DNA from: Escherichia phage BubbaBully
Length of the DNA: 51,209 nucleotides
Sequence record: OR896831.1
Reading direction: 5' to 3' (one strand)
Shown here: positions 8,410 through 38,665 of the stretch, one piece after another
Numbering within the stretch: the stretch's first letter is position 1
Layout of the letters: each line of letters opens with the position of its first letter
Notes under the pieces: generated by a model
Seen by the model: only the letters and a program-made list of their open reading frames with translations
Database searches by the model: none
Told to the model about the DNA's origin: nothing
Made by a program: the position numbers and the translations under genes

Positions 8410-8800
8410 TCTCATGCTGGCGGCACGCAAGGCATTCGCCGCTGAATACGAAAACAGATACGCAATCGCTTATGAAAACGTGGAGTTTACGCCTCCTGGT
8501 GATGGCTCTATGTGGTTGGCGTTCCATTATGTTGAGTCAGAACCGTTGAGGTTATCACTTGATCGCAAATGCGTTTCCTATATGGGGATGGTGCAAATCA
8601 ATGTCACGTTTGCGCCTGGAACCGGAACGGATAAGCCGCGCAAGCTGGCAAAAGAGATTGCTGATTTTTTCAAAGATGGTAAAATGCTGGACGTGGGCTA
8701 CATCTACGAGGGCGCTAGCGTCCGGTCAGTCCAGAAATCAGAAACGGGCTGGATTGTTCCGATCCGGTTTGTTGTAAGAGTTGACACAAAAGGAGAATAA
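8399..8800 (+). CDS. putative tail terminator protein
   Basis: Start at ATG 8399; synteny only. Confidence 0.4.
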   Translation: MDYDLMLAARKAFAAEYENRYAIAYENVEFTPPGDGSMWLAFHYVESEPLRLSLDRKCVSYMGMVQINVTFAPGTGTDKPRKLAKEIADFFKDGKMLDVGYIYEGASVRSVQKSETGWIVPIRFVVRVDTKGE

Positions 8801-8801
8801 A

Positions 8802-9461
8802 ATGCATCTTCCAAACGGTTCACAGATTTTTATCGAAGCCTCTCGCGGCACAGAGCTTTCAGCTAGCGCGATCACCAATGCAGAAAAACCAGTTTTCACA
8901 ATGAGCGACACTGACGATCTAGCAAAAGGTGATTACGTTATTGTAACGGAGTCCTCATGGGGTAAACTGCTAGATCGCGTCCTGCGGGTGAGCGAGGTTT
9001 CCAGCAACTCAAGCGCCACCCTTGAAGGTATCGACACCACCGACACTAACGTTTTCCCTAACGGCGCAACTGCAAAGATCGCAAAGATTAAAGCATGGTC
9101 TGAAATCCCTTGCGTTCAGGATCTTGCACAGGACGGCGGCGAGCAGCAATACTATACTTACCAGTGCCTGTCCGACGACCAGGAGCAGCAGCTACCTACC
9201 TACAAGAGCGCCGTTTCCCTGACGTACACCTTTGCGCACGAGTACGATAACGCAATCTATCCTCTGCTGCGTAAGGCAGATGAAAACGGTGAAGTCACCG
9301 CAATGCGCATGTACGTGCCGAAAGCGAAAGAAATGCGTTGCTGGGCTGGCGTGCTGTCATTCAACGAGATCCCGCAAACTGCGGTTAACGAAATGGAAAC
9401 CGTTTCCCTTTCTTGCTCGCTGAAAGGCCGCTACACATTCCTTCCTGCATCACAGGACTAA
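8802..9461 (+). CDS. major tail protein
   Basis: 219 aa after RBS AAAGGAGAA; directly upstream of the G/GT chaperone and tape measure genes; terminator follows. Confidence 0.6.
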   Translation: MHLPNGSQIFIEASRGTELSASAITNAEKPVFTMSDTDDLAKGDYVIVTESSWGKLLDRVLRVSEVSSNSSATLEGIDTTDTNVFPNGATAKIAKIKAWSEIPCVQDLAQDGGEQQYYTYQCLSDDQEQQLPTYKSAVSLTYTFAHEYDNAIYPLLRKADENGEVTAMRMYVPKAKEMRCWAGVLSFNEIPQTAVNEMETVSLSCSLKGRYTFLPASQD

Positions 9462-9467
9462 TCACAA

Positions 9468-9502
9468 GGGGCGTTGCGCCCCTTTTTTTATTCCTGTAAA
9501 AT
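9468..9502 (+). promoter_or_regulatory. terminator-promoter fusion unit (hairpin + T7 + TTGCGC-17-TAAAAT)
   Basis: GGGGCG-ttg-CGCCCC stem, T-run 9483-9489; -35 TTGCGC formed by loop and 3' arm (9474-9479), -10 TAAAAT 9497-9502. Confidence 0.5.
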
Positions 9503-9528: not shown

Positions 9529-9547
9529 TTTTAACAAAAAGTGCTAT
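9529..9547 (-). promoter_or_regulatory. conserved box, reversed orientation, in tail-operon leader
   Basis: TTTTAACAAAAAGTGCTAT immediately upstream of the RBS of gene G. Confidence 0.5.
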
Positions 9548-9562
9548 TTAGGAGAAAGAGCA

Positions 9563-9880
9563 ATGGCAAAGATGAAACTTACGCTTGCACCACTTCCAGA
9601 CTTCAAACTTCCAGTATCTTTTGTTATGCCTAACGGCGACGAGGGTCAAATCACCTTCACCGTGCGCCACCTGAAAGCGAAAGAAGTTCAGGAGCTTTAC
9701 GAAAGCGAAAACATCGTCACCGATTCAGATTTCATCATGAAGCTTGCGACGGGCTGGAACCTTGAGGAAGAATTCAACGAGGAAAACGCAAAGACTCTTG
9801 TCGAGTTCTACCCAGGCGCTGCGCTTGCCCTGACTGGTGCATATCTTTCCGCGCTGGCTGGTCAACGAGTAAAAAACTAA
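9563..9880 (+). CDS. tail assembly chaperone (G-like)
   Basis: 105 aa between major tail and tape measure genes; ends at slippery heptamer. Confidence 0.7.
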   Translation: MAKMKLTLAPLPDFKLPVSFVMPNGDEGQITFTVRHLKAKEVQELYESENIVTDSDFIMKLATGWNLEEEFNEENAKTLVEFYPGAALALTGAYLSALAGQRVKN

Positions 9881-10194
9881 AACGCGCCGTCTACCTGTTT
9901 TATCAAAAGCCGCCTACTGATGCAGAATTAGAGGCGGTTGGCCTCACAAGGGCAGACTATGAAGGCGAGGAACCGCCAGAAGTTATATTTGATGAATCAA
10001 TGATGCAGTCATGGGATGTATTCTGCGCAATGCAGACTCAATGGCGATCTGCTGGTGGCGGCGCTTATGGCCTTGATTACAACGTCCTCCCGATGCTCTT
10101 TGAAATATACAAGATCACAGATCGGGAAATGGCATTGAATGACCTGCGGATCATGGAAAGTAAAGCGCTCGAAATGATGCACGCAGGAAAATAA
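9563..10194 (+). CDS. tail assembly chaperone G-T fusion (via -1 frameshift at 9871-9877)
   Basis: -1 frame after the heptamer translates without stops into track ORF 10000-10194; conserved G/GT arrangement upstream of tape measure. Confidence 0.65.
9871..9877 (+). other. -1 programmed ribosomal frameshift slippery heptamer A_AAA_AAC
   Basis: Heptamer in frame at last two sense codons of G; -1 frame stays open to 10194. Confidence 0.7.
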
Positions 10195-10196
10195 AC

Positions 10197-10221
10197 GAGC
10201 GCCTTTTGGCGCTCTTTTCTT
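10197..10221 (+). terminator. terminator-like hairpin before tape measure gene
   Basis: GAGCGCC-tttt-GGCGCTC followed by a T-rich run. Confidence 0.45.
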
Positions 10222-10237
10222 ATCTGGAGGTAACTTA

Positions 10238-12949
10238 ATGGCGGAACAATACGCGGGTTTAACGTTAGGCGTTGACGTTCAGCAGGTAAACAACGCAGTT
10301 AAATCACTGAGGGATTTTAAGACCGCTTCCGAGGGCGCGGCTGATGGTCTTGAGTCTTTCGTCAATGAGGAGCAGATTGCACGACAGAGAGCCAAAGATC
10401 TGGCCTCAGAGCTTGCGAAGCAGAGAAAGGAGTTTCAGAGCGTACAGGCGGCGATAGATCCGACTGCTGCAAAAATGGAGCGCTTAAAGGCTGCGGCGGC
10501 TGGCCTAGATAAGCTTTGGAAAAAAGGTATAGTTCCTGACGAAACATTTTTCCAACTCGGAGAAATGCTTGAGACTCAAGCGAATAAACTCGCAGCCAAC
10601 AGAAAAGCGTTAACGGCTGAGGGCAGGGCAGCAATCGAGGAGTCAAAGCAGAAAGCGAAAGCGGCGGCTGAGGCTCAGAAATTCATTGCGGCACTGGAGG
10701 CGCAAGCGGCTGCGGCGGGTAAAACTCAATCCGAACTGATGGAAATGAAAGCTGCGCAGCTTGGAGTTTCGGCACAGGCGGCTCCATTCATTGAGAGAAT
10801 GCGCCAGCAGGAGCAAGCAACGGAAAAGCTTGGGATCTCAATGGGTCAGTATCGGCAGGCTATGCGAATGCTTCCGGCTCAAATCACGGACGTTGCAACA
10901 TCACTAGCTAGCGGTATGCCGATCTGGTTGGTTGCAATACAGCAGGGCGGTCAGATTAAGGACTCTTTCGGCGGGATTATCCCAACGTTTAAGGCGCTTT
11001 TGAGCTTGATTAGCCCTCTGAAAGTTGGCTTTGGTGCGGTTGTCGGTGTGCTTGGTTACATGGCTTACAGCGCATATAGCGCACGAAAAGAACTGAAAGA
11101 GATCTCAAAAACCATTCAGGATGCGACGGGCTTCACTTCTGACTTCTCAAACAAGCTTGCTGTTTCGGTTCAGGAACTGGCTAGCGTTTCGGGCAAATCA
11201 TCCGAGGAGCTTGTTAAATCGTTCGCCACAACGAAGGACACAGCCGGATCACTGATCAAGAAGCTTGTTGATCTCGGAGTGTCATACTCTGATGCGGCAG
11301 ATATGGCTCGACAGTACCAGCGCGACGGCGATATCTCAAAGCTTAACGGAAAGATTGCTGAGCATATGCAGAAGGTTGCAGAGCTTGAAAAAACATGGTG
11401 GGATGTAGCAAAGGCTCGATTAAAAGCGATGGGTGGCGTGCTTACTGGCGATGTTGAGGGAACGGAATACGCCGGAAAGAAAGACACACGACGAAAGAGC
11501 AACCTGGAAAACGCGCTCGAAATCATGACCGAGTACGGCAAGAAGAACAAGGAGATCGCAGACCTAAACTCTAAAGCTTTGGCTGAGGCGACTGCTGAGA
11601 TTGAAAAGCAATATTTCAACACTAACAGGGTTGCAAACGCTCAACAAGAACTTAACCAACTGATTGCAAATCAGAAGAAGCTTGAAAAGTCGAATAACGA
11701 GGAGGCGAAGCAACAAGCCGCTTATCTTATCAAGGCGAAGAAACAGGAGATTGAAGATCTCAAAAAACTTGAGGAGAAGAAGGGCAAAACAACCTCAAAA
11801 GGCGGTGGCGGCGGTGGCGTAGTCGAACAGCTTGATAAAGAGCTTTACGTGCTGCAAGCGCAGTTAAAAACCCTGAAAGAACATCGCACCGTTAACGATG
11901 TTATCTCAAGCCAGCGCCGTTCTTTGTGGAGCATTGAGAAGCAAATCGAGATCCTGGAGGAAGCGCAAAGCAAGCGACAGCTAACGGCTGGAGAGAAAAA
12001 ACTTCTTGCCGAGCAAAAGAGAGCGATTGAGCTTGCGCGGCAAAAAGCGGAGATTGGCGATCAGATTGTTCTACAGGAGCGGAGCAACAAGCTTTACCAA
12101 AACTCCCTTGAGTTCATCCGAAACACTCAGTCCGAGATTGACATTCTCAACCTGAAACAGCAGGGAATGACAGATGATCAGATTCGCAGAGAGCAGGAGC
12201 TACAGAAAATCAAGAATGATTATCTTGCGAAGGGTGGAAGCGTTGACGATCAGGTTTATCAGGACATGATCAAGAAAAGGACGGAGTATTACCAGACGGA
12301 GGACGCGCTGAGGGATAACTGGCTGGCTGGTGCAAAAAATGCTTGGGCTGAGTATGCACGAGACGCAACGGACATGTACGGCAACGTGCAGGAGATTGCA
12401 AGTAGCGCCCTGAGTGGTTTAACTGATCAAATGACTGAATTCTTAACGACAGGAAAGGCAAACTTTGCAGACTTTGCAAACAGCATTCTCAAGATGATTG
12501 TCCAGATGATCAGTAAGATGGTTATCTTTAACGCGCTGTCTGGATTGACCGGAGGCTCAACGTGGACTATGGGATCTCTAATGAGCGGTTTCTCGTCTGG
12601 TGGGTACACTGGCGACGGCGGCAAATATGATCCGGCTGGCATCGTTCACAAGGGTGAATTTGTTTTCACCAAAGAGGCAACGCAACGAATCGGTGCGCGG
12701 AATCTTTACAGACTCATGCGTGGATATGCAAACGGCGGCAGTGTTGGCGGTTCGTCATACTCTCGCGGCGCGTCGGCTGGCGGTGTTGGATCTCAATTCA
12801 ATTTCGGTGATATCATGGTTGACGTGAACAACGGCAACGATCCAAAAGGGATGGAAACCGGAATCAAGATGATTTTCACAGAAATGATTCAGCGGTCTTG
12901 CTCGCAAGGAGGAGAGGTTTATAACTTTGTTAATAGTAAGAGGGGGTAA
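10238..12949 (+). CDS. tail tape measure protein
   Basis: 903 aa, long coiled-coil-rich protein with Gly run, between chaperone and minor tail genes. Confidence 0.85.
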   Translation: MAEQYAGLTLGVDVQQVNNAVKSLRDFKTASEGAADGLESFVNEEQIARQRAKDLASELAKQRKEFQSVQAAIDPTAAKMERLKAAAAGLDKLWKKGIVPDETFFQLGEMLETQANKLAANRKALTAEGRAAIEESKQKAKAAAEAQKFIAALEAQAAAAGKTQSELMEMKAAQLGVSAQAAPFIERMRQQEQATEKLGISMGQYRQAMRMLPAQITDVATSLASGMPIWLVAIQQGGQIKDSFGGIIPTFKALLSLISPLKVGFGAVVGVLGYMAYSAYSARKELKEISKTIQDATGFTSDFSNKLAVSVQELASVSGKSSEELVKSFATTKDTAGSLIKKLVDLGVSYSDAADMARQYQRDGDISKLNGKIAEHMQKVAELEKTWWDVAKARLKAMGGVLTGDVEGTEYAGKKDTRRKSNLENALEIMTEYGKKNKEIADLNSKALAEATAEIEKQYFNTNRVANAQQELNQLIANQKKLEKSNNEEAKQQAAYLIKAKKQEIEDLKKLEEKKGKTTSKGGGGGGVVEQLDKELYVLQAQLKTLKEHRTVNDVISSQRRSLWSIEKQIEILEEAQSKRQLTAGEKKLLAEQKRAIELARQKAEIGDQIVLQERSNKLYQNSLEFIRNTQSEIDILNLKQQGMTDDQIRREQELQKIKNDYLAKGGSVDDQVYQDMIKKRTEYYQTEDALRDNWLAGAKNAWAEYARDATDMYGNVQEIASSALSGLTDQMTEFLTTGKANFADFANSILKMIVQMISKMVIFNALSGLTGGSTWTMGSLMSGFSSGGYTGDGGKYDPAGIVHKGEFVFTKEATQRIGARNLYRLMRGYANGGSVGGSSYSRGASAGGVGSQFNFGDIMVDVNNGNDPKGMETGIKMIFTEMIQRSCSQGGEVYNFVNSKRG

Positions 12950-37087: not shown

Positions 37088-38665
37088 TCACCCCATTAAA
37101 GCAGGATTCACAAATACGCGCCCATTTGTGAGGCATACGTAATTCAGATCTTCAAGGATTGGAAGCAAGTGCCCCTCAATTCGCTTCATTACGCCAGACT
37201 GACCCAAGAACGGACGAACCTTACGCACAGACTCATAAATAGCTCGCGCAGTGATAGCGCCTTTATTGGCCTTTCCGAGTCTGGTTATCGTGTCGATAAT
37301 CTTGATCAACTCTGCATCCTGACCAGCATGACCTGATGCGTTTGCCGCGCTAATGTAGGTCTTGCTCAACTCCTGGAACATCAAGAGAGCCTCCTGCATA
37401 GTCTCAACGTCAATCTCCCGTGACTTTGTGGCGGTTCCGTTAACGTCCTGCCAGTTTCGGATCGTGTGGATAACGGAGGCCAGGCGAATAACCTGCTTAT
37501 CCATTTTACCCAACGCACCACGTAGCATTGTGTGAGAATATTCTCCGCCGTCTGCTAGTTTTGGCTCCATTTCCTGACGAGCCATGTTTAGCACGCGCAT
37601 AGCGGAGCGGCTAACTTTCAATGAAACGGATTGCTCCATCATGATATTGTGGATCAGCTTGTAATAGTCTGCTTTAAGACCTGCATCAACTGGCGTATAA
37701 GTTGTGTCTCCGTTGTCGTCAACGAATTTACGGCGGCCTAAGAATGACTCCTCGCGAACCAGCAAGAAACGCTCCGAAACACCGATACCACGAGCGCCAG
37801 CCTCCATAATGCCGCTGATTGTCTCGTCCTGCGCAATCACAGCCATGCAACCAAGAGCCGTAAAGCTCATGTTGTTTTCTGCATTTGCACGGGAAATGGA
37901 AACGTGACCGCTATCCCAAGCCTTTAGCACCAATTCACTGTTAGTCTTTCGCTCGCTATTTGCGTAAGTCAGCCCGAGCAGTGAGTTTATACTGGTTGCC
38001 TCGTCCGAGATAACAGCAAAGTTACCCTGGCGGAAGTTGATTTTAGCCAAACCCTCTGGAGTTGTGTCTGAAACCGGAAACACAACGTCGCACAGCTTTG
38101 CGAGCTTTTCCTCGTACTCCTCTTTTTCCTCGTAAAGCGCAGCGTACTCAGTACCTGAGCGCTCTGATTTTAACTCCTTTGCAATGCCGTTGAGTTTTGA
38201 CTGAATCTTTTTGCGCTCTTTCTTGCGTTGCTCGTTGATGCGCTCAACCTCTGCAACAATCGGGGCAATCGCCATTGAGTTAATGGCTGATTTACCAGTT
38301 GAAGGAGGCTGGCTTGTCACAACGTACAGCGCCGTTGGCTGATCGGTTCCGTGGTATTCCACGGTAAATCGCCCGAGCATCGCGGCAGACACACAGCCTA
38401 CGAAATGCATGTAGGCAGATGAAACAGGGAATTGAACGGATTCCGCCAAGCTGCGAGACAGCTTTCCTACAACGTCGCAATCGTTGCCGAGGGAAATAAC
38501 AGGATACTTGTCATTTCCGCTGTTAATGTCTTTAACATCACCCCAAAAACCAGACGAGCGAGAGTAGCCGTTTGCCTGGATTGCAACCTTAACGGCGCTC
38601 AAGCCTTGAGCCTCAGCCGTTGAAATGATTTGTTGTGGTGTCAGCGTGGATTGTTCAAAAAACAT
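37088..38665 (-). CDS. P-loop NTPase of unknown function
   Basis: 525 aa; Walker A-like PPSTGKS and Walker B-like AVISDE; own box promoter. Confidence 0.6.
   Translation of the reverse strand: MFFEQSTLTPQQIISTAEAQGLSAVKVAIQANGYSRSSGFWGDVKDINSGNDKYPVISLGNDCDVVGKLSRSLAESVQFPVSSAYMHFVGCVSAAMLGRFTVEYHGTDQPTALYVVTSQPPSTGKSAINSMAIAPIVAEVERINEQRKKERKKIQSKLNGIAKELKSERSGTEYAALYEEKEEYEEKLAKLCDVVFPVSDTTPEGLAKINFRQGNFAVISDEATSINSLLGLTYANSERKTNSELVLKAWDSGHVSISRANAENNMSFTALGCMAVIAQDETISGIMEAGARGIGVSERFLLVREESFLGRRKFVDDNGDTTYTPVDAGLKADYYKLIHNIMMEQSVSLKVSRSAMRVLNMARQEMEPKLADGGEYSHTMLRGALGKMDKQVIRLASVIHTIRNWQDVNGTATKSREIDVETMQEALLMFQELSKTYISAANASGHAGQDAELIKIIDTITRLGKANKGAITARAIYESVRKVRPFLGQSGVMKRIEGHLLPILEDLNYVCLTNGRVFVNPALMG

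Follow-up and report, generated by a model that had tools for sequence, protein, structure and literature searches.

Two overlapping reading frames lie between the tail tube and tape measure genes in the 51,209-nucleotide stretch of phage DNA analyzed here (the window), and the question that they raise is how the second frame is expressed. The first is gene G; the second contains a listed ORF of 64 aa, which begins at an ATG at position 10000 and ends at 10194. An initial annotation, made from the letters alone, had proposed that ribosomes join the two frames by slipping back one base on an A_AAA_AAC heptamer at the end of G, to give a G-T fusion. We analyzed the locus by frame analysis, domain and profile searches, and comparison with related phages, and consider it very probable that, in this T1-like phage, the gene for the tail assembly chaperone is subject to programmed −1 ribosomal frameshifting. 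The features of the locus are collected in Table 1.

Table 1. Coordinates of the G-T locus and its neighbors in the window
Feature	Coordinates	Strand	Basis or remark
Tail tube (major tail) protein gene, upstream neighbor	8802..9461	+	PF08813, E 8.8e-63
Terminator-like hairpin and T-run between tail tube gene and G	9466..9484	+	T1 terminator at equivalent place
Shine-Dalgarno (SD) AGGAG of chaperone gene G	9550..9554	+	8 nt 5′ of ATG; sequence read
Gene G, short tail assembly chaperone, 105 aa, Phage_TAC_4	9563..9880	+	ORF list, translation, Pfam, PHROG
Whole G-T unit, predicted 210-aa fusion via −1 shift	9563..10194	+	Fusion built at heptamer; relatives' alignment
Slippery heptamer A_AAA_AAC, candidate −1 shift site	9871..9877	+	0-frame register GT(A AAA AAC)
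T segment, −1-frame extension, 105 codons and stop, DUF1799	9877..10194	+	PF08809, PHROG, coding signature
G stop TAA	9878..9880	+	Directly 3′ of heptamer; same position in relatives
Terminator-like hairpin and T-run between T stop and tape measure gene	10197..10214	+	T1 terminator at equivalent place
Tape measure protein gene, 903 aa, downstream neighbor	10238..12949	+	PF06791, PF09718, phrog_24

The locus lies among the tail genes of a T1-like phage

Sequence comparison places the phage in the Drexlerviridae, as a Henuseptimavirus-like, T1-like siphophage. The region showed 96% identity to Enterobacter phage N5822, and its identity to Escherichia phage Henu7 and further members of Drexlerviridae, Tempevirinae, Henuseptimavirus was ∼82%. 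The closest G-T DNA sequences were an IMG/VR locus (L021, 97.6%) and N5822 (95.3%), and the first of these matches indicates that a known genus is represented here by a new isolate or contig. Identity to Henu7 was uneven between 9540 and 10239: it was 52–80% across G (9540–9939) and 92–100% over 9990–10089 and 10140–10239, with a dip to 70% at 10090–10139. The jump in identity inside the T segment looks like a mosaic recombination joint.

The gene order is tail tube (ending at 9461), G-T (9563–10194), and tape measure (starting at 10238), and a minor tail protein gene (PF05939) follows the tape measure gene. The tape measure protein matched PF06791 (E = 1.9e-37), PF09718 (E = 3e-25), and phrog_24 (E = 2e-195). 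With one half of the fusion matching PF08748 and the other DUF1799, and with the tape measure gene just downstream, the placing of a G-T fusion upstream of the tape measure gene in the initial annotation was borne out. In the mechanical ORF list, TTG 8781 is given as the tail tube start; ATG 8802 has an SD (AAGGAG at 8790–8795) and gives a protein of 219 aa, the length annotated in relatives, and is likely the true start. Both terminator-like hairpins that bracket the G-T unit (Table 1) have counterparts in the T1 record, where rho-independent terminators are annotated at the equivalent positions, and those in the window may be partial terminators that tune tail gene dosage.

Gene G ends directly on a slippery heptamer

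A direct reading of the sequence together with frame analysis confirmed the coordinates first given for G and for the heptamer. PF08748 (Phage_TAC_4, tail assembly chaperone) matched G over its full length (residues 1–105; E = 5.9e-36; 123.8 bits against a cutoff of 21.1; model positions 1–124 of 124), and G was also matched by phrog_569 and phrog_17368. The 0-frame codons at the 3′ end of the gene are GGT CAA CGA GTA AAA AAC TAA; A_AAA_AAC thus stands in the canonical X_XXY_YYZ register, with AAA and AAC as the final two sense codons of G. One detail had to be corrected: the stop of G had been placed two codons after the heptamer, and the TAA in fact abuts it directly. Read in the −1 frame, the bases of this stop are part of CTA AAA (Leu-Lys).

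The heptamer alone is weak evidence, since in-frame canonical heptamers are not rare in an A-rich genome: 37 were counted in the 15,306 codons of a crude set of 78 ORFs, and seven of these were AAAAAAC. The heptamer at 9871 was nevertheless unique among the 37, being followed by an open −1 frame of 105 codons (versus 56 for the runner-up), and it was the only one to adjoin its 0-frame stop. The comparative data described below place it far beyond chance. Further in-frame copies of A_AAA_AAC were found in long ORFs at 38657 (+ strand, followed by 56 open −1 codons), 22190, 22367, 30711, 30756, and 36113, and these probably reflect chance in an A-rich genome.

The slip site is conserved in register among relatives

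A tblastn search with the fusion matched 1143 phage records, 1108 of which cover at least 80% of it, and among the matches listed almost all records contained two pieces in different frames. We examined a comparative set of 18 GenBank and 80 IMG/VR loci, with 97 related loci falling into 34 clusters at 90% nucleotide identity. The IMG/VR loci showed the two-frame geometry in 79 of 80 cases, and the GenBank loci in 17 of 18. The full heptamer was found in the same place, with G ending NNA AAA AAC stop, in 28 of the 34 clusters. At the level of single IMG/VR loci, 79 of the 80 had one of three G endings, namely, NNA AAA AAC stop (55 loci), NNA AAA GTY or GCC stop (21 loci), and NNA AAG GTC stop (3 loci).

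A shorter element, A_AAR, was kept in all 34 clusters. The base 5′ of the Lys codon was A in every cluster and lay under Val, Ala, Glu, Thr, and Gln codons, although in this genome Val is encoded by GTA in only 17% of cases and Ala by GCA in only 30%. Throughout the family, the stop of G was found no more than one codon 3′ of A_AAR. The sequence at the slip position was GCA AAA GTY TAA (4 A) in Webervirus-type relatives, GCA AAG GTC TAA (3 A) in Rogunavirus-type relatives, and CAA AAG TAA in Taid. Loci L006, L013, L017, L019, and L055–L082, which belong to Webervirus, Rogunavirus, Taid, and ATCEA85, contained only A_AAA_G or A_AAG with the same two-frame geometry, which suggests a reduced, single-tRNA slip site in these lineages.

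The exact position of the slip site, as first proposed, was pinned by Dhillonvirus GeorgBuechner (L016). In this phage a −1-frame TGA lies directly 5′ of the heptamer, the first A of which is exactly where the −1 frame becomes open, and the two frames overlap by 10 nt. Since the TGA abuts the heptamer, the shift must happen on the heptamer itself.

The record of N5822 (MW032452; 78 kb, "circular," 216 features), the nearest relative in GenBank, departed from this pattern. Aligned with window positions 9563–9880, its G region (L001:1661–2016) had two single-base deletions, one at about window position 9815 and the other in the slippery A-run (A5 versus A6). G is thereby shortened to 89 aa, and tblastn reads G-T in one piece. 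These deletions are most likely sequencing or assembly errors and not biology, and they make the record uninformative for the slip site.

A run of six A also invites the explanation that RNA polymerase, and not the ribosome, makes the shift by adding one A at 9871–9876 in some mRNAs. Slippage is known to occur on homopolymers of A or T (PMC5009743; PMC4066793), the run is extended to seven A in relatives with GAA AAA AAC, and the product would be indistinguishable from the form of the fusion that has a K-K junction. However, it is A_AAR and not a long run that is conserved, and the run keeps a strict codon register, which is relevant to ribosomes and not to polymerase. Known cases of bacterial transcriptional slippage involve runs of about nine or more, and the A6 run falls short of that. 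The long, register-independent run that typifies this class of event was not what we found at the locus. A run that shrinks to 4 A in Webervirus-type and 3 A in Rogunavirus-type relatives while its register is kept fits slippage of tRNA-Lys, not stuttering of the polymerase. We consider transcriptional slippage very improbable as the source of the fusion, though it may contribute to a minor extent, beside the ribosomal frameshift, in variants with A6 or A7.

The −1 frame evolves as coding sequence from the heptamer onward

With stops at 9763 and 10192 and no other stop in the interval, the −1 frame is open from 9766 to 10194; the earlier statement that it runs without interruption from the heptamer through the 64-aa ORF was correct. 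Between 9766 and 10000 this frame contains no ATG, GTG, or TTG. PF08809 (DUF1799) matched extension residues 22–101 (E = 1.8e-12; 47.8 bits against a cutoff of 26; model positions 2–80 of 80), so that the match starts 20 codons 5′ of ATG 10000, and the extension was also matched by phrog_680. In phrog_17368, which has 213 positions, G corresponded to positions 1–107 and the extension to positions 109–210. Since this one family spans both halves, fused homologs exist in phage protein collections. NCBIfam gave no model match, and a sequence profile search of the PDB returned only a spurious match to ribosomal L20 (E = 0.41), with no solved structure detectable. The mean pLDDT of a single-sequence AlphaFold2 model of the fusion was 39, too low for the model to be of use.

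The fusion could be aligned end to end with 14 relatives, and from the slip site on, the motif K(N/K)LKRAVYL.YQ..PTD was conserved across Drexlerviridae. In 22 relatives, the 89 nt that follow the heptamer had entropies of 0.63, 0.50, and 1.38 at the three −1-frame codon positions, and the share of pairwise codon differences that were synonymous was 55% in the −1 frame versus 5% and 10% in the other frames. By these measures, it is solely in the −1 frame that this stretch evolves like coding DNA. Such a signature argues that the stretch after the heptamer is read in the −1 frame, yet it offers no start codon in the window.

If the two frames were instead independent genes, the 64-aa protein would be translated from its own ATG with no frameshift. 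An ATG-initiated ORF is present, and this 195-nt ORF has been annotated exactly so in Henu7, JohannLBurckhardt, K50_evo11, and others. However, ATG 10000 has no SD, and its anti-SD duplex, at −0.1 kcal/mol, is weaker than that of 78% of + strand ATGs; the corresponding values are −7.3 kcal/mol for the ATG of G and −10.6 kcal/mol for the tape measure gene. Pfam and PHROG matches begin 20 to 41 codons 5′ of ATG 10000. Both the homology and the coding signature start at the heptamer, 120 nt 5′ of this ATG, and the −1-frame signature is strong in the 120 nt that separate ATG 10000 from the stop of G. Furthermore, the first −1-frame start codon of relatives lies inside G or anywhere from 9 to 198 nt past the G stop, and LKRAVYL stays conserved as this codon moves.

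The weak anti-SD pairing, together with homology and coding signature upstream of ATG 10000, makes a separate 64-aa protein very unlikely. The initial annotation had set a functional start of this ORF against the fusion, and none was found. Two independent genes are, in our judgment, highly improbable, and it appears that the T segment is translated solely within the G-T fusion, of which it forms the C-terminal half. The idea that the T frame is an unexpressed, decaying remnant or a sequencing artifact can point to the single-base indels of N5822, which include the A-run and suggest that the run is error-prone in sequencing, but the recurrence of the same geometry in 79 of 80 IMG/VR and 17 of 18 GenBank loci, purifying selection on the −1 frame, and an intact DUF1799 domain leave it effectively refuted on the sequence evidence.

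A low-efficiency slip of host tRNA-Lys is proposed

From the sequence we infer a −1 ribosomal frameshift of the following kind. Most ribosomes would translate G and stop at TAA 9878, giving the 105-aa chaperone expected from standard decoding, and a minority would slip back by one base on A_AAA_AAC. The tRNA-Lys would re-pair from AAA 9872–9874 to AAA 9871–9873, either alone or jointly with a tRNA-Asn that moves from AAC to AAA. ARAGORN found no tRNA genes in the whole window, so any frameshift would rely on tRNAs of the host. After the slip, decoding would resume at CTA 9877 in the −1 frame and continue to TAA 10192–10194. The product would be a 210-aa G-T fusion with the junction ...QRVK(N/K)LKRAVYL...

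The binding partners of the two parts are suggested by analogy with lambda gpG/gpGT. The shared G part may bind the tape measure protein, which is encoded just downstream, and the T part (DUF1799) may recruit the tail tube protein, which is encoded just upstream. A low rate of shifting would set a high G:GT ratio, and both G and G-T would be absent from the virion.

Two candidate stimulators were considered and rejected. The first was a hairpin in the T coding region (9908–9939; −26.5 kcal/mol, z −2.7), which begins 31 nt after the heptamer; RNAalifold on 22 relatives gave zero conserved pairs downstream, and the hairpin was set aside for its distance and for this lack of a conserved pair. The second was an upstream SD-like stimulator of the dnaX type. 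This candidate was dismissed on inspection, since the AGGG of some relatives corresponds to Ala-Gly codons, the third positions of which vary freely.

With no conserved stimulator, the efficiency of the shift may be low, and this is compatible with a low-efficiency shift like that of lambda, with its G:GT ratio of about 30:1 (PMC5009743). Frameshifting at A_AAA_AAC is listed as proven for one IS cluster of E. coli (A_AAA_AAC_1), which lacks an established stimulator (PMC4066793). The tetramers A_AAG and A_AAA rank among those prone to shift (PMC4066793; PMC5009743), and in synthetic E. coli constructs A_AAA_AAC was much less shift-prone than A_AAA_AAG (PMC5009743).

The family-wide invariant is A_AAR with a nearby G stop, and not A_AAA_AAC. 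It is therefore conceivable, though we would put it as rather unlikely, that T1-type chaperones use a single P-site slip of tRNA-Lys, aided by an A site that is empty or slowly filled beside the stop, instead of a tandem slip. If this were true, the junction would be K-K and not the K-N of a tandem slip, and the G:GT ratio would respond to the charging of host tRNA-Asn and to release-factor levels.

The probable frameshift calls for a joined annotation

We regard the frameshift as real, ordinary, and already known, and current understanding is unchanged by the G-T finding. Its main value lies in annotation: a joined CDS (9563..9877, 9877..10194) should take the place of the 64-aa ORF at 10000–10194. 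Among the annotated GenBank relatives that we inspected, 18 of 19, including T1, list two ORFs or only G and have no join, and on this basis the same correction is due in most deposited Drexlerviridae genomes. The identification of A_AAR as the true invariant of the motif would be a modest, testable refinement for research on bacterial −1 frameshifting. Correct annotation of the isoforms also has some practical relevance, since an Avs-type defense sensor is newly reported to be triggered by tail assembly chaperones and binds the N-terminal core common to both isoforms (bioRxiv 10.64898/2026.01.04.697583).

Comparison with known systems

The initial annotation had called the arrangement well known, and the literature agrees. 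"A conserved translational frameshift" has been described for phage Stevie (PMC4319613), and the genome announcements of the T1-like phages Solomon (PMC8407766) and U136B (PMC8104045) state the same frameshift. Our literature search found no direct protein or reporter evidence for the frameshift in any T1-like phage. The record of Citrobacter phage Stevie (KM236241; CPT_Stevie15/16) has a two-piece CDS, 10144..10775, overlapping a short CDS, 10144..10458. This joined CDS is equivalent in length to the one proposed here, and the Stevie locus (L037) has GTA AAA AAC TAA. Stevie showed 88% best-segment tblastn identity to a profile query whose first sequence was the window fusion, and T1 (genes 40 and 39) showed 63% identity to the fusion in the alignment. 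As in the window, both phages have orthologous proteins of the same Pfam families and the identical heptamer in the same register directly before the G stop (GTA/GCA AAA AAC TAA). T1-like phages also share the order tail tube, terminator, G-T, terminator, tape measure. Their system shows no mechanistic difference from the one described here, which belongs to a distinct phage.

The resemblance to lambda is of another kind. Lambda too makes a short protein, gpG, and a form with a C-terminal extension, gpGT (PMC5009743). However, the slip site is G_GGA_AAG in lambda and A_AAA_AAC here, and the Pfam families differ. In lambda, six more codons of G follow the slip site, with G ending at 10133 and the T CDS starting at 10115, whereas here the stop abuts the heptamer. 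With a 15-sequence profile, hhalign gave probabilities of 0.2% against lambda G and 0.9% against lambda T, that is, no homology to either. The functional analogy with lambda therefore draws on the position of the locus, the Pfam name, and the conservation of the frameshift; by that analogy G-T appears to be a functional counterpart, and it falls outside the lambda G/T sequence families. The tape-measure-binding and tail-tube-binding roles have been demonstrated for lambda only.

The IS cluster A_AAA_AAC_1, which we take to be IS1 (insA-insB′ frameshift, E. coli), shares only the slip motif with the locus; one encodes a transposase and the other a tail assembly chaperone, and their biology is unrelated. 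Xu, Hendrix, and Duda reportedly defined, in 2004, a class of tail chaperones with a conserved G/GT-type −1 frameshift. As in that class, the window has two overlapping frames between the tail tube and tape measure genes, a slippery sequence in register with an open second frame, and a conserved site and geometry with a coding downstream frame that lacks a start of its own.
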